Below, one piece after another: positions 1 to 42,091 of a stretch of DNA of 42,091 nt. Source of the stretch: Candidatus Gastranaerophilales bacterium (GTDB lineage Bacteria > Cyanobacteriota > Vampirovibrionia > Gastranaerophilales > Gastranaerophilaceae); NCBI GenBank assembly GCA_944325045.1, contig CALUYR010000309.1, positions 1-42,091 on the forward strand, given 5' to 3'. A program made the translations under genes and the position numbers. Position 1 is the stretch's first letter; the number at the start of each line of letters is the position of its first letter. Below the pieces are notes generated by a model that was not told the DNA's origin, did no database searches, and worked only from the letters and a program-made list of their open reading frames with translations.

Positions 1-77
1 ATGTCGGCGCGCGCGGGTGGTGCCGTCCTTTACGGAGTAAACAATAAATAAGGTTATAAAGAGGACAAGTACGACTT
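1..77. repeat. Terminal direct repeat (left copy), identical to 42015-42091; assembly overlap of a circular or circularly permuted genome
   Basis: Compared base by base: atgtcggcgcgcgcgggtgg...gaggacaagtacgactt occurs at both ends. The left copy holds the last 47 nt of the tail-fibre ORF, including its stop at 45-47. Confidence 0.95.
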
Positions 78-109
78 ATGATGAAATTACAGGGTATAGG
101 TCTATTCGG

Positions 110-221
110 GCGTTTGATAGTTGGCGGGAATTGGAATAACTCCGGCTACACTGGTCCTTCGTGTCGTAATGGTAATAACCCGGCTCTGAATCTGAACACG
201 AATGTCGGCGCGCGCAGGTGG
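110..221 (+). repeat. DGR template repeat (TR)
   Basis: 112 nt align to VR 41926-42034 (109 nt). All 13 substitutions are at TR adenines, and there is one 3-nt indel. Nine AAY codons (aat/aac) occur in the VR reading frame. It ends in the GC-rich stretch gtcggcgcgcgcAggtgg. Confidence 0.92.
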
Positions 222-355
222 ATACGTAATTGCGGCTAGTAAGCCGCTGGACGGCTGGACCTATATCCTTTCCGTATTCGCAGGATATGGAAGAATACAC
301 AACAGGAAAGCCCTTTGTTAGTAGGGCTGCCGAAAGTAAGGGGCTTTTCGCTTTT
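222..355 (+). promoter_or_regulatory. DGR spacer between TR and RT start, with predicted stem-loops (232-247 gcggc/gccgc; 309-328 agccct/agggct)
   Basis: Non-homologous to the VR flank from 222 onward. Short perfect stems were read directly. The location matches the Sp region of characterised DGR RNAs. Confidence 0.5.
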
Positions 356-1753
356 ATGGTAAGAAGACACGGGAATTTGTACGAAAAATTTATAACATTG
401 GATAATTTTATATGCGCTTTTCATAAAGCTAAAAAAGGAAGAAGAGATAATAAATATGTGCGCAAAATTCTTGGAACACAACGCAAAAATGAGACCAGAA
501 AAGAATATGAAAAACGCAGGGAAAAACGGATAAAAAGATTTATGCAACATTTGATATACATAGTTGATAGCGGAAAATTTACTACAAGTGAATACAAGAC
601 AAGGGATATAAAAGATCCTAAGCCAAGAACGCTTTATATTCTACCGCTATATCCGGATAGGATAGTACAACATGCGTTAGTCAATGTTCTAAAACCTATA
701 TGGGATAAATTATTTATTTATAATAGTTACGCTTGCCGAGAAGGTAAAGGCCAACATAAATGTTCCAAAAAAATTTCGGAATATGTAAAACGTTATAAAT
801 ACTGCGCCCAGACAGACGTATCAAAATTTTATCCAAGTATACCTCATAATGAACTTTATGCCGTAATACAAAGAAAAATAAAAGATAAAAAGATATTAGC
901 GTTATTAAAGGATATAGTATACTCCATAGAAGGCGAAACCAATACCCCTATAGGTAACTTATTAAGTCAGCATTTAGGTAATCTTTATCTTAATGAAGCG
1001 GATCAATTTGAGGCGCACGTTCTAAAGCTTAAAGCGATTGGTCGATATATGGACGATAAGTCACATTTTAGTAACAATCTTCCGGAATTAAAGGAAAAAA
1101 TCGAACAGTTTGAAACTTTCCTATCGGAAAATTTAAAACTCAAATTAAGCAAAAAGAAATTTTTACGCTGTGATAACGGTGTCCCATTCATAGGTTATAG
1201 GCATTTTCCGGGTTACGTTTTGCTTAAAAAGAGAACTGCAAAACGGATCCGGAAAAAGGTCACTAAATTAGACAGGTTATTAGAAGAAAATAAAATAACT
1301 CTCATTCAATATACTTCTACGTTAGGGGCTTTTTACGGCTGGGCTAAACACGCCAACACGTATAACTTTCGTAAACGTATAGGGTTAGATGAGAAGTTTG
1401 AAAACGCGAGAAAAAGAATAAAGGAGGTAAAAATGCGCGGATTTCCAAAGTACACAGATATTGCGACAAAGTATGACGTTGAAAACTTAAAGGCTATTTT
1501 TCCTAATGAGACTAAAAAATTTTTAGAATCATTGAGAGATGATCGCTTTGTATGGGTTACGGTCTCCCCCCTTGCTTCAAAAGAGATAGGGGTAACAGAC
1601 GACACTCACAGAGTTATTGAGAGCATGGATCAAGACAATCCGGAAACTATATTATACTATCAGCAGGAACTGATAGAAGACGAACATGCTCGATTATTCC
1701 GCATGGGGTACACAGTCGAACAAGTCAATACACTTATAGAAAACTTGTCGTAG
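356..1753 (+). CDS. DGR reverse transcriptase with a ~106-aa C-terminal extension
   Basis: The ORF track opens at a TTG at 230, but ATG 356 gives the typical DGR RT N-terminus MVRRHGNLYEKFITLDNFICAFHKAKKGRR. Motifs seen: DRIVQHAL, TDVSKFYPSI, PIGNLLSQHLGNLYL (IGxxxSQ), GRYMDD (YxDD) and VPFIGYR. Confidence 0.93.
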   Translation: MVRRHGNLYEKFITLDNFICAFHKAKKGRRDNKYVRKILGTQRKNETRKEYEKRREKRIKRFMQHLIYIVDSGKFTTSEYKTRDIKDPKPRTLYILPLYPDRIVQHALVNVLKPIWDKLFIYNSYACREGKGQHKCSKKISEYVKRYKYCAQTDVSKFYPSIPHNELYAVIQRKIKDKKILALLKDIVYSIEGETNTPIGNLLSQHLGNLYLNEADQFEAHVLKLKAIGRYMDDKSHFSNNLPELKEKIEQFETFLSENLKLKLSKKKFLRCDNGVPFIGYRHFPGYVLLKKRTAKRIRKKVTKLDRLLEENKITLIQYTSTLGAFYGWAKHANTYNFRKRIGLDEKFENARKRIKEVKMRGFPKYTDIATKYDVENLKAIFPNETKKFLESLRDDRFVWVTVSPLASKEIGVTDDTHRVIESMDQDNPETILYYQQELIEDEHARLFRMGYTVEQVNTLIENLS

Positions 1754-1764
1754 TCCTCGTGTTT

Positions 1765-1793
1765 CGGAGGCGGTTAAACTGCCTCCGTTTTCT
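1765..1793. terminator. Bidirectional intrinsic terminator between the convergent RT gene and the 1794-2354 gene
   Basis: cggaggc (1765-1771) / gcctccg (1781-1787) stem followed by ttttct. Confidence 0.7.
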
Positions 1794-14837: not shown

Positions 14838-15964
14838 TTAATATAAGCCCTCCAAATTTATACCGGACAGAATATGTGCTATAACATCAACAGTCCAGCC
14901 GTTTCCTAACATCTTATATCTCTGCGTATTGCTTACCCCTTCCGTGTAACAGTCCGGTACAGTTTGTAAGCGTTCGCATTCAAGGGGCGTAAGTTTACGA
15001 ATGCAATAATGCCCGTCCGGTAAGTTTACTTTGTAAAGCCCTGTTTTAGCACCTAGTCCCCCCCCCCATTAGCATTTAGAGATACCGACTTGCCAATAAC
15101 AGAATAAACCCTATTCCCTTGCGAACTGCTGCCATTCACATTACCTATTTTAATAGGTGCGCAGAGCATACTATCAGTATTTACCGTAGTTATGCTATTT
15201 GCTTTTCCATCTCTCTTTATTTCAAGCCGTTTCCCAAATCCGTTTCTTGTTCTCATAGCACAAGGTATAGCAACATTTGTCATTGTCATACTTCTTACGC
15301 CTTTATACATAGACGCCCCTATACTCCTAGCCTTATTGCTTAATCCTCTTACTCCGTCAAAACTATATTGGCTCGAAAGATTATCACTAATATTTATCCC
15401 CGTTTCTATAATATCCTTTAAAAAAATTTTGCAGTCATTAGGCTGGGTAACCCAAATATTAGTCCAGTAGTAACGTTTACGTTGTTGAGCTGACAATAAT
15501 GCAGAATTTATCATAATCGGTTCAACGCCTAAAATACTACTTATGGTATCTCTATCCTCATTACGCATACTAGCAACATTTTCGAGCAAAAAATATTTAG
15601 GTTTCACCTTTTCGAGAATCTCAACAAACCGCCAAAACAAACCGCTTCTCTCACCTTCTAAACCTTTACGGTTATGTTTTGCTATAGATAAGTCTTGACA
15701 TGGGCTTCCGCCCATTACTAAGTCTATATCTTCCCATGAAAAGCCTTCAATAAATTCCCAAAACTGAAAATTATTAACATCACCCAGATTAATAGCTTTA
15801 GGATAGTTTTTATCCGCTATTTTTATAGCGTACTTATCAATCTCACTTGCAAAATACTTATCGTATCCAATACCCGCCCTCTCCAGTGCGATAGCGCCGC
15901 ACCTCATACCGTCAAAAAGGCTTAAAACATTTCTAATCTTCACTCTTACAAACCTCCGAAGCAT
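14838..15964 (-). pseudogene. DNA (cytosine-5) methyltransferase interrupted by a frameshift in a G10 tract
   Basis: Frame 1 (15964-15053) holds motifs I (LFDGMRCG), IV (GGSPCQDLS), VI (LLENV) and VIII (QQRKRYYW), then ends NANGGGD*. A shifted frame (15056-14838) holds motif IX (RKLTPLECERLQTVPDCYT) and motif X (YKMLGNGWTVDVIAHIL). Confidence 0.9.
15058..15067 (-). repeat. Homopolymer: C10 on the plus strand, G10 in the coding sense; site of the methyltransferase frameshift
   Basis: Counted directly: ccc at 15058-15060 plus ccccccc at 15061-15067. Confidence 0.95.
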
Positions 15965-16544
15965 ATCTCTTCTTAATAAAATACAAACGTGCTAAGGCGT
16001 TCCATGCGACATGCGCTGCGTGATATAATCCGCTCTCCAGATCTATAGCCCGGTTTTGTTCTGCTAATAAATGACGCATTAAAGCATTGGAGTATCTCTC
16101 TTCTCCTCCAAGAACATAACGCCAATTACCTTTAGAATACTTATCAGCACCAAACGCCCATACTTTAGCAACTTCTTCGAGCGGTTCGGCAAAATCTTGA
16201 ATCATCTCACACATGCGGGGTTTACCTTTATCATATTTTATCCCTTCAACCGGTGTCATTGGTCCTGTTTCTGTTTCTGGCTCTGATTCCAGTTCAAAGT
16301 TATAGAGTTCAACATGGGGTAATAGGTACCCCGGAAAAGTTCTTACAAAATATTTCACAATATCATCAATATCGAAAATGTCTCCCCGAAAAGTATATCT
16401 CATAGGCTCTTTATTACTTAATGATACTTCGATTGAGGTGCAACCGAATGTTGTATTAAGGTCTATTCGTACTGATACTTCGCCAAAATAAAGTCTTAAT
16501 CTCTCGCAAAGTCTTTTAACAAAATCCTCATTTACTCTGTCCAT
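15933..16544 (-). CDS. Protein with a dATP/dGTP diphosphohydrolase-like (MazG-related, PF18909-like) C-terminal domain
   Basis: KYDKGKPRMCEMI...VAKVWAFGADKYSKGNWRY...ALMRHLLAE...ESGLYHAAHVAWNALARLY matches the remembered domain signature. Confidence 0.6.
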   Translation of the reverse strand: MDRVNEDFVKRLCERLRLYFGEVSVRIDLNTTFGCTSIEVSLSNKEPMRYTFRGDIFDIDDIVKYFVRTFPGYLLPHVELYNFELESEPETETGPMTPVEGIKYDKGKPRMCEMIQDFAEPLEEVAKVWAFGADKYSKGNWRYVLGGEERYSNALMRHLLAEQNRAIDLESGLYHAAHVAWNALARLYFIKKRYASEVCKSED

Positions 16545-16549
16545 TTCTC

Positions 16550-17074
16550 TTATCCTCCTATAAATGCTTTTGTACTAAACCAGTTATAATAATTCCAGCT
16601 ATATTGAATCTCCATAACTCTTTTAGAAAATATAGCTATCATGATTTTCTGACTGGGTTTCGGTGTCTCGTTTTCTGCCCCCGGAATAATAAAACCTATC
16701 TTGCCGGGAAGAAAAGCAAAAAGACAATGCGGATTTTTGATTATTAGTTCTTGATAATAATTAGTTTCCAGCCTATCAGCCGGTAAAACCATATAAACCT
16801 CTTCCGCATTCCCTTCTTGTATCTCGTTGTACGCCTTGCGTAACCAATTGCGCGTATACTTAAAAGGCGGGTTAAGAAAACACTTACCTCGCCAGCCTAT
16901 TGTTAATCCGTCATACAAACCATTGAACGCATGAAAGTCCGCCGGAATATTAGCCTCACTGCAACATACGTCCATACTAAAAAATGCCGTCTGTGCAATA
17001 TTGAGTAAACTATCGACAATCCATGACGGTGTCATATAATCATCACGCACAGAATCATAAGCCTTTTGTGCCAT
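16550..17074 (-). CDS. Phage Dam-type DNA N6-adenine methyltransferase
   Basis: The sequences DDYMTPSWIV and catalytic FLNPPFKY are seen. Size and layout fit the PF05869 family. Confidence 0.8.
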   Translation of the reverse strand: MAQKAYDSVRDDYMTPSWIVDSLLNIAQTAFFSMDVCCSEANIPADFHAFNGLYDGLTIGWRGKCFLNPPFKYTRNWLRKAYNEIQEGNAEEVYMVLPADRLETNYYQELIIKNPHCLFAFLPGKIGFIIPGAENETPKPSQKIMIAIFSKRVMEIQYSWNYYNWFSTKAFIGG

Positions 17075-18850: not shown

Positions 18851-19558
18851 TTAGGCTATAACCTCATACTTTTTAGACCATAAATCAAGTGTTTTTTGTA
18901 CCGGTTCTTTTTTAGCTGTAATCGCTTTTACTGTTTCAATAGCCGTTACATCATCTAAGCCCCTAACCTGTTCTTTATTAAATACGGTATAACCTTTGTA
19001 ATAGATTTTTTCTTTTACTGGTTCATCTGTTTCAGTTTCATCATCTTTTTTAGATTTTGCAATAATAGCAAGAGTGATATAAGTACCGTGTTCGCCCTTT
19101 TTAACGGAGTTTTTAGCCGTTTTATACTGCGCAAATGTAGACCATTCATTAGATTGATAGTTATTTTGTAACTTTTCAATTTCTAATGTCCAGATATTCC
19201 AGCCGCTAAAATTATGCTTTGTTAAAGGGTTGCGGTGATTTGCTGGTCTTAAACCATGCTGCCAATATAAAGCAAATAGCGCACCTTCCGGAAAAGCATG
19301 TTTTAATGCTTCTTTTAATAACTCTTTTTTCAAATTGATTGTTTCGGCTGTTTCGTTTAAATCGGTTTCAGCATAATTTGAAGAAGTTTTAAACCCCTTA
19401 TCAATTCTTTTTACTGCTTTTTCAAGTTGGTTGTGTACTTCTTTTAAAATTTCGTTGCCTTTTTCGCCGTAAATATCCGGGTGATACTTTTTAACTAACT
19501 CTTTGTAAGTCGCTTTAAGCTCTTCGGACGTTTTGCATTTTTCAAAATAGTTTGTCAT
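18851..19558 (-). CDS. J-domain (DnaJ-like) / ArdC-N (DUF1738) ssDNA-binding fusion protein
   Basis: The N-terminus LKATYKELVKKYHPDIYGEKGNEILKEVHNQL carries an HPD motif. The C-terminus NPLTKHNFSGWNIW...EWSTFAQYKTAKNSVKKGEHGTYITL follows the ArdC-N pattern. Confidence 0.65.
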   Translation of the reverse strand: MTNYFEKCKTSEELKATYKELVKKYHPDIYGEKGNEILKEVHNQLEKAVKRIDKGFKTSSNYAETDLNETAETINLKKELLKEALKHAFPEGALFALYWQHGLRPANHRNPLTKHNFSGWNIWTLEIEKLQNNYQSNEWSTFAQYKTAKNSVKKGEHGTYITLAIIAKSKKDDETETDEPVKEKIYYKGYTVFNKEQVRGLDDVTAIETVKAITAKKEPVQKTLDLWSKKYEVIA

Positions 19559-24867: not shown

Positions 24868-26586
24868 GTGGCAAGTTCAAGAATTGACGCTATTTTACAT
24901 AGATTTAAAACTTTAAAATCACGTAAACAGACACTTATACCGTTATATGAACTTATAAGTGAATATGTCTATAATCGTAAGTATGACGGCTACGGCATAC
25001 CTAATGCGGGGATTTTTGCAGATGAAGACATTTATGACAATACTGCACAACGTGCGAATGGCATTATGGCTAACGTTATGGTTAATAACATTTGGCCTAA
25101 CGGTCCTAGGACTTTTTCTGTCGGGCGTACTTGGGATACACCGGACACAGAAGAAATAAAAAAGTATTTTGAATTTGTAAATCAGCAGATGTATTCTGTA
25201 ATGGATAACACCCGCGCAGGGCTTCAAACCGCATTTGATGAATATATGCTTGATCAAGGGGCTTATGGTATTAGTGGTGTTTATGTCGAAGAGAAAGAAA
25301 CGGATCCGGTTGTACCTATTAGATATAAGTCTTGGGGGATTAAGGATATGCTTGTTGATGAAGGCCCGGACGGGTTAATCGATACTATTTTTTCTGAAAA
25401 AGAGATGTCTATTAGAAACGCAGTCCGTGTATACGGTTTAGAAAAATTGCCTTCGTTTGCAAGAGAACTCTATAAAAATGGGGAAGTTGAAAAGCCTTTA
25501 AAAATTCTTCATGTTATTGAACCGCGTTTAGAAAGAGATCCGAAGAAAAAAGGTGCTAAGGATATGCCTATAGCTTCTATCCATATAGAACTAAGTACAC
25601 GTAAAATATTGAAAGAAAGCGGTTTAGAAGAAATGCCGGTGTTTGTCGGCAGATTTTCAAAAGTTCCCGGAGAGATTTACGGTCGTTCCCCTGCCATGGT
25701 TGCTATGGCGGATATTCTGGAAATTAATGCAGTAAGGGAAGCTATATCTATTGCGACTGAAAAACAATTAGATCCTCCATTAGCTGTGTATGATGACGGT
25801 GCATTAGGGGGCGGAGATATTGACACTTCTGCCGGCGGTGTAACTGTTTTCTCTGTAACTGGTCGATTGAATACCGGAAAGCCAATTGAGCCTATATATA
25901 CAGTGGGTGAGCTGCAAAGTTCATACACTCATATTGATACGTTGAAGGAAACTATTAATAATCATTTTTATCTTGATAGGCTACTTGACTTCAATAATGA
26001 AACACGTATGACACTTGGCGAAGCACAGCTAAGAAATGCCCTCCGCGGTCAATCGCTCGGAGCTTTTTATGCAAGACAAGAGAATGAAGTTGTTACGCCG
26101 GTTATTGAAAGAACGTTTAATATTCTATTGAAACGTGGCAGATTAGGCGTTGTATCGGGATCAGAAGAAGAAATCGAGTTAATATCAAGGGGTATTCAGC
26201 CGGTATACATTCCGGACGTTCTTGTACAAAAAATGTTAAACGGTGACGATATTTATGAGATTACGTATTTGTCACCTGCAAAACGTACAATGCAATCAGA
26301 AGAGTTACGCGGCATTATTGAAACTGCTAATTTTGCAGTTGGTGTGGCACCAGCTAATGCAGAAATACTCGATAATATTGATTTTGATAAATTGATAAGC
26401 AGAGTAGCTAAATTAAGCGGTGCGCCAATGGAATTGATAAAAGACAGCGTAACTGTTAAGGGTATTAGAGACGCAAGAGCACAACAGCAACAGCAATTAA
26501 TGCAATTAGAACAGGCAAGGCAACAGAGTGAAATAGGGCGTAATGTGGCCCAGATGAATGCTATGCAAGGTAAGGAGGCCGCTTAA
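24868..26586 (+). CDS. Portal (head-to-tail connector) protein
   Basis: 572 aa, lying between TerL and the scaffold/capsid genes. GTG start after RBS taggggg. Confidence 0.8.
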   Translation: MASSRIDAILHRFKTLKSRKQTLIPLYELISEYVYNRKYDGYGIPNAGIFADEDIYDNTAQRANGIMANVMVNNIWPNGPRTFSVGRTWDTPDTEEIKKYFEFVNQQMYSVMDNTRAGLQTAFDEYMLDQGAYGISGVYVEEKETDPVVPIRYKSWGIKDMLVDEGPDGLIDTIFSEKEMSIRNAVRVYGLEKLPSFARELYKNGEVEKPLKILHVIEPRLERDPKKKGAKDMPIASIHIELSTRKILKESGLEEMPVFVGRFSKVPGEIYGRSPAMVAMADILEINAVREAISIATEKQLDPPLAVYDDGALGGGDIDTSAGGVTVFSVTGRLNTGKPIEPIYTVGELQSSYTHIDTLKETINNHFYLDRLLDFNNETRMTLGEAQLRNALRGQSLGAFYARQENEVVTPVIERTFNILLKRGRLGVVSGSEEEIELISRGIQPVYIPDVLVQKMLNGDDIYEITYLSPAKRTMQSEELRGIIETANFAVGVAPANAEILDNIDFDKLISRVAKLSGAPMELIKDSVTVKGIRDARAQQQQQLMQLEQARQQSEIGRNVAQMNAMQGKEAA

Positions 26587-26888
26587 TGGCAAAAGAAAAA
26601 ACGCAAGAGACTACGAAAGAAAACCAGTATAAAAAAGAATTACAGAAACTGCGAAATGCTTTTAACAATGTTGCTAAAACAAGTTCCGGAAAAGTGGTAT
26701 TCAGATACTTAATGAAGGAATGCGGATTTAACGAGCCCGCTGTAGTTGCGAGTTGTGCAACAGGGGAGATAAACCCTTTAGGCTCAATTTATAACGAAGC
26801 ACGTAGAGACGTATACATGAGGATACGAAAATTTTTAAGTAAAGAGAATATTATATCAATTGAATTTAAGGAGGACGAAGATGAGTAA
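26586..26888 (+). CDS. Small head-morphogenesis-associated protein (Bbp19-like, from memory)
   Basis: 100-aa ORF coupled to the portal stop (taatg). It sits in the conserved position after the portal in podovirus modules. Confidence 0.5.
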   Translation: MAKEKTQETTKENQYKKELQKLRNAFNNVAKTSSGKVVFRYLMKECGFNEPAVVASCATGEINPLGSIYNEARRDVYMRIRKFLSKENIISIEFKEDEDE

Positions 26889-40393: not shown

Positions 40394-42061
40394 ATGGCTG
40401 TATGGAATGACGAAAACAAACTTTTAGTAGATTGCAGCGAAGTAAAGGACATACCTTTTGAGTTTAAGATTTTTAATGAAAAGGATTTGATTGTTTCCTT
40501 GATAAATCAAGAAACTTCGGAAGAAACACTATTAACGCTGCATACTGATTATGAAATTGAAATAAGCAGGATTGAGGACGGCGGAACATTAAAGCTCAAT
40601 GAGGTTCACCCCGGATATAACTGTTATGCTTACAGAGAAATTCCGCTTATTCAACCGGAAGAAATCCCAACAGAAGGGAATTTTCCGGAAGAAACCATTG
40701 AGAATGCTTTTGATAGAGGCGTAATGATAAGTCAGCAGTTGCAGGAGCAAATAGACAGATGTTTAAAGATTCCGGGCTTTTCATCTATTTCGGAGATTAA
40801 CTTTGAAGAGCCGCAAGACGGAAAAGCTTTAATATACGATATTGAGGGAAACACTGCTACTATCAAGAACTCTCAATATAATCCGGACGAGGTTGTTGAA
40901 GAATGTCAAGCACAAGTTGCTTTAGCAGAAGCACAGGCGGATAGATCCGAATTAAATGCAGAAGCCGCCGCGGCTATCACAGGACAATTCCCGGCGTCCG
41001 TAAGCCTTACAACTTGGGCGAGATTAAATAACGGCGAGATTTTTAACTTACCGTTTGACAGTGTAAAGGCTGATGTTAATAGATTTATTGAGTATGCAGA
41101 CAAACGTAAACTTAAAATTTTGAAAAACACTTTTATCAGACTGGATATAACAACTGAAACAGATAGCGGCAGTACAAGTGAATCGCGTTTATTTTGTGTC
41201 TGGGAAGATCAAACGCTAAACGTAGAGGATTTGCTCGATACAGGAGAAACGCTTACAAACGGTAAGGATTATAGTATATTCTTAGTTCCTGATGATACAG
41301 CAACAAATAGCATAGGAATTAAGGTATCTCTGAATAAAACAGCGCCTACAGGGTATAGTGCATTGAATACTAGACGTATAGGCGGATTCCATACGCTATG
41401 TGTTGACGCCGGAACAATTGAGGGTCACGATTTAAGCGGTTGGCTTGCCGGTGATATTTTACCTTTATCAGTATGGACGTTATGGCATAGACCTATTTGC
41501 AGCCCTTCCGGTATGCGTTATGTTCCGGAATTAGACGGCTGGAAAACTATTTACATGCAATCCGGAACGGGTACAAATACCGTTTTTGAATACGGTGCTA
41601 CGCATACCAGATCACGTGATTACTGGGGGCATGAGTTTGATGTAGGCATGGTCGGAATGGAACTTATATCAAGTTTAGCATTTACCGTATCCGCACAAGG
41701 AGTTGAACCGTTAAAAGCTATTCAAGGAAAAGCGGAAAGTTATTGTTTAACTGCCGGTGGTCATGTTAATGAAAGCGGACGCCGTATATTATCAAACGGC
41801 GGTGATGAAGATGATGTCGGTGTATTATGGCAAGTAACAAGTCATATTGCGGCTACAGGCGGCTCAAACTGGGCGCAAGCCGGATCATTTAATGATACGA
41901 AAGCATATCAATATGGCTCTTGTATGCGTTTGATGGTTGGCGGGTCTTGGGCTGACTCCGGCTACACTGGTCCTTCGTGTCGTGGTGGTAGCCCGGCTCT
42001 GTATCTGCACACGCATGTCGGCGCGCGCGGGTGGTGCCGTCCTTTACGGAGTAAACAATAA
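40394..42061 (+). CDS. Tail fibre / receptor-binding protein, DGR target (Mtd-like, C-type-lectin-fold C-terminus)
   Basis: It is the last late gene. The C-terminus ...VGGSWADSGYTGPSCRGGSPALYLHTHVGARGWCRPL is encoded by the VR. Confidence 0.85.
   Translation: MAVWNDENKLLVDCSEVKDIPFEFKIFNEKDLIVSLINQETSEETLLTLHTDYEIEISRIEDGGTLKLNEVHPGYNCYAYREIPLIQPEEIPTEGNFPEETIENAFDRGVMISQQLQEQIDRCLKIPGFSSISEINFEEPQDGKALIYDIEGNTATIKNSQYNPDEVVEECQAQVALAEAQADRSELNAEAAAAITGQFPASVSLTTWARLNNGEIFNLPFDSVKADVNRFIEYADKRKLKILKNTFIRLDITTETDSGSTSESRLFCVWEDQTLNVEDLLDTGETLTNGKDYSIFLVPDDTATNSIGIKVSLNKTAPTGYSALNTRRIGGFHTLCVDAGTIEGHDLSGWLAGDILPLSVWTLWHRPICSPSGMRYVPELDGWKTIYMQSGTGTNTVFEYGATHTRSRDYWGHEFDVGMVGMELISSLAFTVSAQGVEPLKAIQGKAESYCLTAGGHVNESGRRILSNGGDEDDVGVLWQVTSHIAATGGSNWAQAGSFNDTKAYQYGSCMRLMVGGSWADSGYTGPSCRGGSPALYLHTHVGARGWCRPLRSKQ
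41926..42034 (+). repeat. DGR variable repeat (VR), followed by an IMH-like flank
   Basis: Aligns to TR 110-221 and differs only at TR adenine positions plus one codon deletion. It ends in gtcggcgcgcgcGggtgg. Homology to the TR is lost from 42035 onward. Confidence 0.92.
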
Positions 42062-42091
42062 ATAAGGTTATAAAGAGGACAAGTACGACTT
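42015..42091. repeat. Terminal direct repeat (right copy), identical to 1-77
   Basis: Direct comparison. Confidence 0.95.

Follow-up and report, generated by a model that had tools for sequence, protein, structure and literature searches.

Two questions are raised by the 42,091-nucleotide contig CALUYR010000309.1, the whole of which is referred to here as the window: does it carry a working diversity-generating retroelement (DGR), and with what components would such an element operate? A preliminary description of the window proposed a complete DGR at the end of a tail-fiber gene, consisting of a variable repeat (VR), a template repeat (TR) along with a reverse transcriptase (RT), and split by the contig ends. 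The present analysis favors a real, apparently active DGR of the Mtd type that acts on a phage tail fiber, works without the accessory protein Avd and resides in a circularly assembled podovirus genome of ∼42 kb, and the probability of this reading is put at roughly 0.9. It is carried by the anatomy of the cassette, the adenine specificity of the differences between the repeats, the class of the RT, the homology of the target to Mtd, and variation that is restricted to the VR beside an invariant TR. Coordinates are collected in Table 1.

The two repeats are 86 per cent identical across 112 alignment columns and differ by thirteen substitutions, each of which coincides with an adenine of the TR (positions 119, 129, 130, 135, 136, 138, 168, 169, 178, 189, 195, 201, and 216). 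This reproduces the preliminary description exactly, and no mismatch occurs at a non-adenine position of the template; with 24 adenines among 112 positions, the hypergeometric probability of such a placement is 7.3e-11. The near-identity of the repeats stands as far as the listed substitutions go, but a difference in length of 3 nt had been overlooked. The VR is one codon short, lacking an AAT beside the AAC at 177–179, with the reading frame kept (168–179 of the TR aligned to 41984–41992 of the VR). The thirteen listed positions are obtained with the gap at TR 174–176 or 175–177, and four alternative placements of equal score shift two to three of them while creating no substitution at a non-adenine. 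The deletion is specific to the window genome, since the VR of a related contig, L001, is of full length, and it fits the slippage indels seen elsewhere: TR/VR indels occur in 7 per cent of DGRs, mostly as multiples of 3 nt beside AAC, and have been attributed to template slippage (PMC5758913).

The nine AAY codons (AAT or AAC) that had been counted in the TR are confirmed in the frame of the VR, where they start at 129, 135, 138, 168, 174, 177, 189, 195, and 201, and 23 of the 24 adenines occupy the first or second codon position. The TR has a single partner, there being only one VR in the whole window. Both repeats close on a GC-rich block of 18 nt, directly after which the flanks diverge and identity drops sharply on the 3′ side; the one A/G difference within the block, at position 216, separates the TR from the VRs of both the window and L001. 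Given its likeness to the initiation of mutagenic homing (IMH) element of Bordetella phage BPP-1 (PMC5758913), this block may act as IMH in the VR and as IMH* in the TR.

Positions 1–77 repeat positions 42015–42091, as had been stated, and because this overlap is exact, the real unit length is 42,014 nt; the overlap is a circular or concatemeric assembly junction. When the junction is closed, TR position 110 becomes position 42124 and, with the target stop codon ending at 42061, a spacer of 62 nt separates the two, again in agreement with the earlier figure. The rotated cassette is confirmed by L001 (IMG/VR contig UViG_3300045988_136490), which is 98.8 per cent identical to the window over 13.4 kb and runs without interruption across the junction, so that the proposal of a single cis cassette divided by the contig ends is borne out. 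In total the cassette of target, 62-nt spacer, TR, 134-nt spacer, and RT occupies ∼3.5 kb.

By its motifs and by its best matches in sequence and fold, the RT belongs to the DGR class. The PIGNLLSQ and YMDD motifs named in the preliminary description are found at 947–970 and 1046–1057 of the open reading frame (ORF) 356–1753, and the core matches Pfam RVT_1 at 1e-18 and PHROG 1423 at 4.6e-82. Its best sequence match in the Protein Data Bank (PDB) is the RT of BPP-1 (bRT; 8ub7, E = 1.6e-36); a group II intron RT matches at E = 2.4e-20, and chains that were deposited under the name 'retron-type reverse transcriptase' at ∼2e-12. bRT is likewise the best Foldseek match (E = 5.6e-20, TMt 0.79) to an AlphaFold model (predicted local distance difference test score, pLDDT, 86). 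bRT and ordinary DGR RTs of 333–347 aa align with residues 1–344 only. The preliminary description had spoken of an RT ORF, and this holds for 356–1432, whereas the last 106 codons belong to a separate family, designated X, that is fused in frame. Among annotated phage relatives the RT of vir525 is closest, at 41 per cent identity. The RT core has an isoelectric point (pI) of 9.96, and in the subclade to which the window belongs the RTs have, at 434–565 (RT residues ∼27–70), an inserted stretch of ∼45 aa that is very basic and has a helical prediction. This insertion is missing from bRT and from more distant RT-X proteins and could provide an RNA-binding surface for an enzyme that lacks Avd.

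The target gene joins two modules. Residues 18–131 match the N-terminal adaptor of T7-type fibers and tailspikes, both in the PDB (N-terminus of the Dpo31/Dpo36 tailspike, 2.8e-9) and in twelve PHROG tail-fiber families, and residues 281–551 match PHROG tail protein 11262 at 4e-32. A profile (A8) of the C-terminal region of the target and seven relatives matches the Mtd structures 1yu0–1yu4 at ∼8e-36 over Mtd residues 93–378 of 381, and the alignment takes in the GGSW...GSR...GARG scaffold that holds the variable residues. Judged by these matches, the target is an Mtd homologue with a T7-type fiber N-terminus, its VR is situated within the C-type-lectin region, and the earlier description of the gene as a tail fiber is upheld.

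Evidence for activity comes from close relatives of the window. In comparison with L001 there are no differences in the TR (0/112 nt) or in either spacer, while the VR differs at 15 of 109 columns, made up of 12 substitutions plus the gap of 3 nt and confined to sites of TR adenines; the RT-X ORF differs at 6 of 1398 nt and the remainder of the target gene at 31 of 1532 nt. The full-length VR of L001 in turn departs from its own TR by fourteen substitutions, and all fourteen fall on adenines. A sister lineage (RT 65 per cent identical) is represented by two contigs from different sequencing runs, L002 and L003, which carry the same RT and differ at 14 positions in 9663 nt, every one within the VR, and in a third lineage the 14 real differences between L004 and L005 are again confined to the VR (14/14). 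Mismatches between TR and VR are nearly all at adenines in ten of ten related loci (L001–L010). Variation of this kind, limited to the VR in close relatives beside a TR that does not change, comes near to a direct sign of ongoing mutagenic homing, and the cassette is on this comparison apparently active. Of the three refuting conditions set in the preliminary description none holds: mismatches at non-adenines are absent, the RT groups with DGR RTs, and the VR is not conserved across related genomes.

The 134-nt spacer between TR and RT contains stem-loops at 232–247, 260–290, and 305–349. The last of these resembles the Rfam motif RT-14, which is found directly upstream of an RT gene and forms a long hairpin with a conserved UAGUA...GAA internal loop. 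The same hairpin precedes the RT start in eleven loci, where the sequences of the outer stem differ and the UAGUAG...GAAAG loop is conserved. When the sequences were anchored by script on the invariant UAGUA and GAAAG motifs, the outer stem was paired in 92 of 110 cells (84 per cent) in register, compared with 45–58 per cent in shifted registers, and none of 2000 shuffles reached the observed pairing; the count is conservative, as L004 was mis-anchored. Alignment of the spacer by MAFFT followed by RNAalifold missed the outer stem. Well supported by covariation but below threshold (see below), the hairpin is a relative of RT-14 rather than a scored member, and it may be an element for RT binding or priming. 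In BPP-1 a different motif of the series RT-1 to RT-19, RT-10, sits between TR and brt, and Weinberg et al. (2017; PMC5737381) guessed that the other RT motifs serve other DGRs; the window supports that guess for an RT-14-like element.

Two further features of the spacer were observed. Directly 5′ of the hairpin, at 294–303, is the motif AAUACACAAC, which is kept in most related spacers as AAUACUCAAC, AACACGCAAC, or AAUACACAG and is a candidate site of priming or RT contact. The purine run AAGGGG, a possible ribosome-binding site for the RT (start at 356), is located within the 3′ arm of the hairpin, as are the corresponding purines of several relatives (GGAGAG in L004, AGGAAGGA in L007), so that the structure of the DGR RNA might limit translation of the RT. 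A match to an L20 leader in L006 was set aside as it looks like a terminator.

How the cassette would act can be sketched by analogy with BPP-1, from which the RNA intermediate, the priming step, and the consequence for host range are taken over. The late operon ends in the DGR, in the order of target gene with 3′ VR, 62-nt spacer, TR, structured 134-nt spacer, RT, and terminator. An RNA comprising the TR and the downstream spacer would be reverse-transcribed by an RT that, like that of BPP-1, is faithful at C, G, and U but misincorporates opposite A, and the resulting cDNA would replace the VR up to a boundary set by the GC-rich 3′ end of the repeat. As nearly all TR adenines are at codon positions 1 and 2, each such event should recode that face of the C-type-lectin tip, Mtd-type in this target, which binds the ligand, and a switch of the usable host receptor would be the likely outcome.

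Table 1. Positions of the DGR, its target and other features in the window (42,091 nt; L001 is the related contig described in the text)
Feature	Position	Strand	Basis or remarks
Template repeat (TR)	110..221	+	112 nt, 24 A, nine AAY codons; 100% identical in L001
TR 3′ end (GTCGGCGCGCGCAGGTGG), IMH*-like	204..221	+	Differs from the VR copy by a single A/G, at position 216
TR-to-RT spacer, presumed 3′ part of the DGR RNA	222..355	+	134 nt; 0 differences from L001
Hairpin with UAGUAG...GAAAG internal loop, RT-14-like	305..349	+	Rfam, covariation
DGR-type RT core, 359 aa	356..1432	+	RVT_1, bRT, PHROG 1423; IGxxxSQ, YMDD
Internal Shine-Dalgarno (AAGGAGG) and in-frame ATG at the start of X	1421..1435	+	Invariant Met
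X, 106-aa acidic domain/protein	1433..1753	+	Fused in frame to RT
Intrinsic-terminator-like hairpin, then T run, closing the cassette	1765..1787	+	
C5 cytosine methylase	15053..15964	−	
Protein with dATP/dGTP diphosphohydrolase N-terminal domain	15933..16544	−	
Dam-type adenine methylase	16550..17074	−	
ArdC-N-like protein	18851..19558	−	
DGR target, 555-aa tail fiber	40394..42061	+	ORF; Pfam mtd_2nd PF21916 6e-17; PHROG tail protein 11262
N-terminal T7-type fiber/tailspike adaptor domain (aa 18–131)	40445..40786	+	PDB Dpo31/Dpo36, PHROGs
Mtd-like beta-sandwich and C-type-lectin region, holds VR	41207..42046	+	Profile A8 against PDB Mtd
Variable repeat (VR)	41926..42034	+	109 nt, 13 substitutions and one 3-nt in-frame gap relative to TR
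GC-rich VR 3′ end (GTCGGCGCGCGCGGGTGG), IMH-like	42017..42034	+	Read from sequence; 18 nt
Terminal overlap	42015..42091		Same as 1–77; L001 uninterrupted there

Several observations weigh against a working DGR. No match to the Avd family (PF05635) was obtained in a Pfam search of all 67 ORFs of 70–320 aa, phmmer with the Avd of BPP-1 found no match in the window, and the 62-nt gap between target and TR leaves no room for avd; the word 'complete' in the preliminary description is therefore apt if target, TR, and RT are meant as the core, but not for the accessory gene. A GC-rich hairpin with a stem of 7–10 bp and a 4-nt loop was not found after the VR in the window, where the stem has only 4 bp (CCGT/ACGG), the loop has 5 nt, and folding is no better than in shuffled sequence (z-score +0.84), nor is there a conserved equivalent in the relatives. 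No sigma-70-like promoter was detected in the gap between target stop and TR, and such matches occur only inside or beyond the RT-X ORF, in numbers no higher than in shuffled sequence. The Rfam model RT-14 (RF02921) matches 261–348 at 30.4 bits and L002 at 43.5 bits, both under the gathering score of 48.1, with most of the model's 5′ half (53 positions) missing. Activity, moreover, is read from comparison between genomes and not from sequencing reads.

Avd is essential in BPP-1. It is not, however, universal among DGRs, of which 74 per cent have the gene; accessory-less elements made up 29 per cent in the survey of Wu et al., in which Lineage 3 is without avd (PMC5758913). The cruciform is likewise typical of phage DGRs without being defining: it has a GC-rich stem of 7–10 bp and a 4-nt GRNA loop, lies 4–34 bp past the VR, and is required for efficient homing in BPP-1 (PMC3240598).

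The missing Avd and canonical cruciform, together with the 3-nt deletion in the VR, could indicate that the cassette of this genome is a recently inactivated fossil in which the differences between TR and VR record nothing but past activity. This is very unlikely, as the RT ORF is unbroken and retains the catalytic YMDD, TR and spacer match L001 exactly whereas 15 columns differ between the two VRs, sister lineages of the same architecture differ between samples only in the VR, and in-frame 3-nt indels beside AAC are themselves known from DGR reverse transcription (PMC5758913). It might also be supposed that the repeats are products of ordinary duplication followed by divergence, or of recombination, next to the RT of a group II intron or retron. 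Some database records do label relatives of the RT as 'retron-type' or 'group II', and the NCBIfam group II intron model (TIGR04416) reaches 108 bits, but its cut-off is 300, and the retron model scores 31 against a cut-off of 235. Confinement of thirteen out of thirteen substitutions to adenines (P = 7e-11) and the precedence of bRT in both sequence and fold speak for a DGR, and there is no maturase or endonuclease domain; an Rfam scan of positions 1–600 returned neither intron RNA domains nor retron msr/msd. An origin of this kind is thus hardly credible, and the interpretation as an apparently active DGR is preferred over both.

Much of the locus has a counterpart in BPP-1, the prototype DGR (mtd-avd-TR-brt), which is likewise a podovirus of ∼42 kb with its DGR at the end of the tail-fiber genes. 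In both, an Mtd-type target bears the VR in its last ∼110 nt, the TR follows just downstream with adenines mostly in AAY codons (24 A in the window and 23 in BPP-1; PMC5758913), the 3′ end of the repeats is GC-rich, and TR and RT are separated by a structured RNA (RT-14-like and RT-10, respectively); bRT is the closest solved relative of the RT, and a small acidic ORF, X in the window and bbp4 in BPP-1, follows it, the two being possibly homologous. Unlike in BPP-1, target and TR are just 62 nt apart in the window with no avd gene in that interval, and the 8-bp GC cruciform that follows the VR in BPP-1 is missing. The target carries an extra T7-type N-terminal adaptor and is longer (555 aa against 381 aa for BPP-1 Mtd), the RT differs from bRT in its basic insertion near the N-terminus and its fusion to X, and no integrase or cI-type repressor was seen among the window ORFs searched. 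The core of target, TR, and RT without avd is that of Architecture A1 and the avd-less Lineage 3 DGRs (Wu et al. 2018).

The absence of Avd and cruciform, the RT-14-like spacer RNA, the slippage indel of 3 nt, and an RT extended at its C-terminus are all known already for DGRs. Extensions of up to ∼150 aa with no recognizable motif are present at the C-terminus of ∼20 per cent of DGR RTs (PMC5758913). What is new in the extension described here is that it constitutes a separate and widespread family linked to Mtd, usually a gene of its own, with no PDB fold match and with its internal start site kept.

In the clade of the window the RT frame runs into X without a stop codon. X is acidic (pI 4.65), and its AlphaFold2 model (pLDDT 91) has the fold order two helices, three strands, and two helices. 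Profile searches of Pfam, NCBIfam, PHROGs, and PDB gave no match to X, and neither did tblastn against the phage collection; Foldseek found no match among PDB folds (best E = 0.73) and, in BFVD, one uncharacterized viral protein (E = 7e-4). Around 35 protein clusters of 428–488 aa, 40–95 per cent identical to the query, share X as a C-terminal domain, and an exhaustive HMMER search with the domain profile enlarged the family to 517 clusters. More than 90 per cent of the best 150 of these 517 are free-standing proteins of 92–167 aa that begin at the same methionine as X, and 1433–1753 is therefore a gene in its own right.

This methionine (ATG 1433), kept without exception by the 32 fused homologues aligned, falls in a linker modeled at pLDDT <50. 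Pairing of its Shine-Dalgarno site with the anti-Shine-Dalgarno sequence (−12.9 kcal/mol) is the strongest in the ORF, the RT's own start having −6.7. The start of X ranks in the top 3 per cent of codon positions in seven of eight distinct fused genes. Such a site and ATG at the boundary of RT and X are also seen in L002, L004, and L006–L010, and in most fused genes the internal site is the strongest of the ORF, above the start of the RT itself. It is thus probable from these signals that an RT-X fusion and free X are both made, the latter by way of an internal ribosome-binding site. There is a parallel in gene 4 of T7, where in-frame internal initiation yields the long and short products 4A and 4B. 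The window likewise shows a strong Shine-Dalgarno site and an ATG in frame inside an ORF of a T7-like phage; unlike in 4A/4B, the predicted short product would be a whole separate domain that is a gene of its own in most relatives.

The context of X was surveyed in 100 loci, of which 54 had at least 2.5 kb on either side and are here called well-flanked; viral contigs with X were found using a narrower alignment of X (A5). An Mtd-like gene was present within 4–5 kb in all 54 well-flanked loci and a DGR RT in 46. The gene order was Mtd, RT, X in 41 loci; X, Mtd, RT in five; Mtd, X without RT in six; and X, Mtd without RT in two. The RT-less loci are mixed, as some keep a TR or a remnant of the RT and others do not, for instance L025 and L076, where an intact X comes straight after Mtd. 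A second uncharacterized ORF of ∼100 aa, designated Y, often lies between RT and X (L019, 3678–3986; L112, 4992–5279); it has no Pfam match, is not present in the window, and also occurs in a Y-X fusion of 161 aa (P0133) and an RT-Y-X fusion of 546 aa (P0125). No Avd gene was found in the X cassettes examined in detail (L002–L004, L006, L007, L014, L019, and L112), one of which, the avd-less cassette of a Methanosarcinales virus, has the order RT-Y-X. X is missing, for its part, from three Avd-bearing phage DGRs (Vibrio, Pseudomonas, and Bacillus). A scan of genome contigs with a further alignment (A6) yielded 12 loci in metagenome-assembled genomes (MAGs) of Bacillota, Negativicutes, Omnitrophota, and one Methanocorpusculum bin; none of the 12 was from Bacteroidota, and the Y-X fusion P0133 gave no match when used as query against genome contigs.

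The avd-less cassette type Mtd-TR-RT-(Y)-X was also observed in L112 (BK063673, host given as Methanosarcinales) and L100 (a Methanocorpusculum MAG). Two sets of paralogues were encountered among the loci: a tandem pair of Mtd-like genes, 80 per cent identical, in L087 (3350–5570), and two diverged SU10-adaptor paralogues downstream of the RT in L004 (6399–8085) and L005. Neither pair shows adenine bias, and they are thus ordinary duplications and not additional VRs.

In BPP-1 an unannotated acidic ORF of 82 aa, bbp4, directly follows brt (L111, 1527–1775, minus strand), and its family numbers 492 hits. Profile–profile comparison (hhalign) aligns bbp4 and X end to end with 66 per cent probability (E = 5.5e-5), whereas single-sequence comparison gives 11 per cent probability and hmmsearch no match in either direction. 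On the profile comparison bbp4 is a probable distant homologue of X.

What might X do? One explanation, which comes close to an even chance, is that X is a partner of the Mtd fiber module, perhaps a chaperone or partner in assembly of the tip, with no role in reverse transcription. TR and RT would have been inserted between mtd and X, the stop codon of the RT would have been lost in this clade, and a harmless RT-X read-through would be made beside free X. The linkage to an Mtd-like gene in all well-flanked loci is what this predicts, and it spans T7-like, SU10-like, and one P2-type-baseplate backbone and persists where the RT is missing or a remnant. The same explanation can accommodate the predominance of free-standing family members with the same start methionine, an internal Shine-Dalgarno site stronger than that of the RT, the low-confidence linker between RT and X, and the variable position of X relative to the RT. 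Small acidic genes beside fiber genes are typical of fiber assembly factors, and X is acidic, with bbp4 as a precedent. It is less easily reconciled with it that X resembles no chaperone or tail protein so far described, no Pfam family, and no fold that has been solved, that a stop-less fusion has persisted over deep divergence, which would be odd if it were functionless, and that X is lacking in the three Avd-bearing phage cassettes, whose targets may or may not be Mtd homologues.

A more tentative proposal is that X is an accessory factor of Avd-less Mtd-type DGRs that binds the RT, the DGR RNA, or both in place of Avd, with fusion and internal start supplying one tethered and several free copies that could form a mixed oligomer. 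Here the genomic arrangement is suggestive, in that X directly follows the RT in 41 of the 54 well-flanked loci, is often separated from it by only −1 to 14 nt or by the one small ORF Y, and is fused to it in frame in the ∼35 clusters already described, with methionine and strong Shine-Dalgarno site kept. The X cassettes examined have no Avd and a gap between target and RT that fits the TR only, while the three Avd-bearing cassettes have no X, and there is a precedent in CH1, an acidic candidate accessory protein present only in avd-less DGRs (Wu et al. 2018; PMC5758913). But Avd is a basic protein that binds nucleic acid (PMC5758913) and X is acidic, X keeps company with Mtd in all 54 loci and with an RT in only 46, and some six loci (such as L025 and L076) have an intact X beside Mtd but neither RT nor TR in the vicinity. 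Seven loci place X upstream of Mtd instead of after the RT, and in BPP-1, where the probable homologue bbp4 follows brt, avd, TR, and brt suffice as donor (PMC3240598). The partnership with the fiber module is on balance rated slightly likelier than a retrohoming cofactor that replaces Avd. It is doubtful whether X (with Y elsewhere) is an unrecognized component of Avd-independent Mtd-type DGRs, made in fused and free form and needed for cDNA synthesis or homing.

CH1 has 160–169 aa, a pI of 4.7 ± 0.2, and no motifs, and is restricted to DGRs in which avd, HRDC, and MSL are all absent (Wu et al. 2018; PMC5758913). Compared by description only, CH1 and X are both small and acidic, and the Y-X fusions of ∼160 aa match CH1 in size. 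By this likeness in size and pI, CH1 could be a Y-X fusion, although the 12 genome loci obtained with X include no Bacteroidota.

Since the cassette is compact, Avd-less, and accompanied by natural 'before and after' pairs of near-identical genomes with differences in the VR only, it is a good candidate for a minimal, portable system of targeted mutagenesis. It is also suited to the study of RNA recruitment and cDNA priming in Avd-less DGRs, which account for roughly a quarter to a third of the total, and X presents a concrete candidate for the missing cofactor, or else for a partner of the fiber tip. Interest in the locus would be higher if X were truly a retrohoming factor.

Judged by its gene content and terminal overlap, the window represents the genome of a podovirus, assembled as a circle of ∼42 kb, with T7-like structural and replication modules and a GC content of 38 per cent. 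Comparison with PHROG and Pfam identified replication genes (family-A DNA polymerase, primase/helicase, exonuclease, and an Enc34-type ssDNA-binding protein), genes for head and packaging (large terminase, portal-like head–tail adaptor, and major head protein), and tail genes (T7-type tail-tube proteins, internal virion proteins, and a protein of 1658 aa encoded immediately upstream of the target). The gene layout is similar to that of a T7-like podovirus and to that of BPP-1. No match at the DNA level was found when 22 kb of the window were compared by megablast with 50,697 phage records (INPHARED), and neither an integrase nor a cI-type repressor was seen among the ORFs searched. The nearest relatives of the RT and X are carried by Negativicutes and Lachnospiraceae, and these carriers, along with strong Shine-Dalgarno sites, tentatively point to a host among gut or rumen Bacillota.

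On the minus strand (15053–17074 and 18851–19558) is a cluster of genes for DNA modification and anti-restriction (Table 1). The dATP/dGTP diphosphohydrolase domain encoded there prompted a consideration of a 2-aminoadenine (Z) genome, which is unlikely; no PurZ-like match was obtained among the large ORFs searched with Pfam and PHROGs. Finally, an ORF of 100 aa at 26586–26888 has a weak match (E = 1e-4) to the Bbp19-like phage protein family, which is named for a gene of BPP-1, and thereby adds a further likeness between the structural modules of the two phages.

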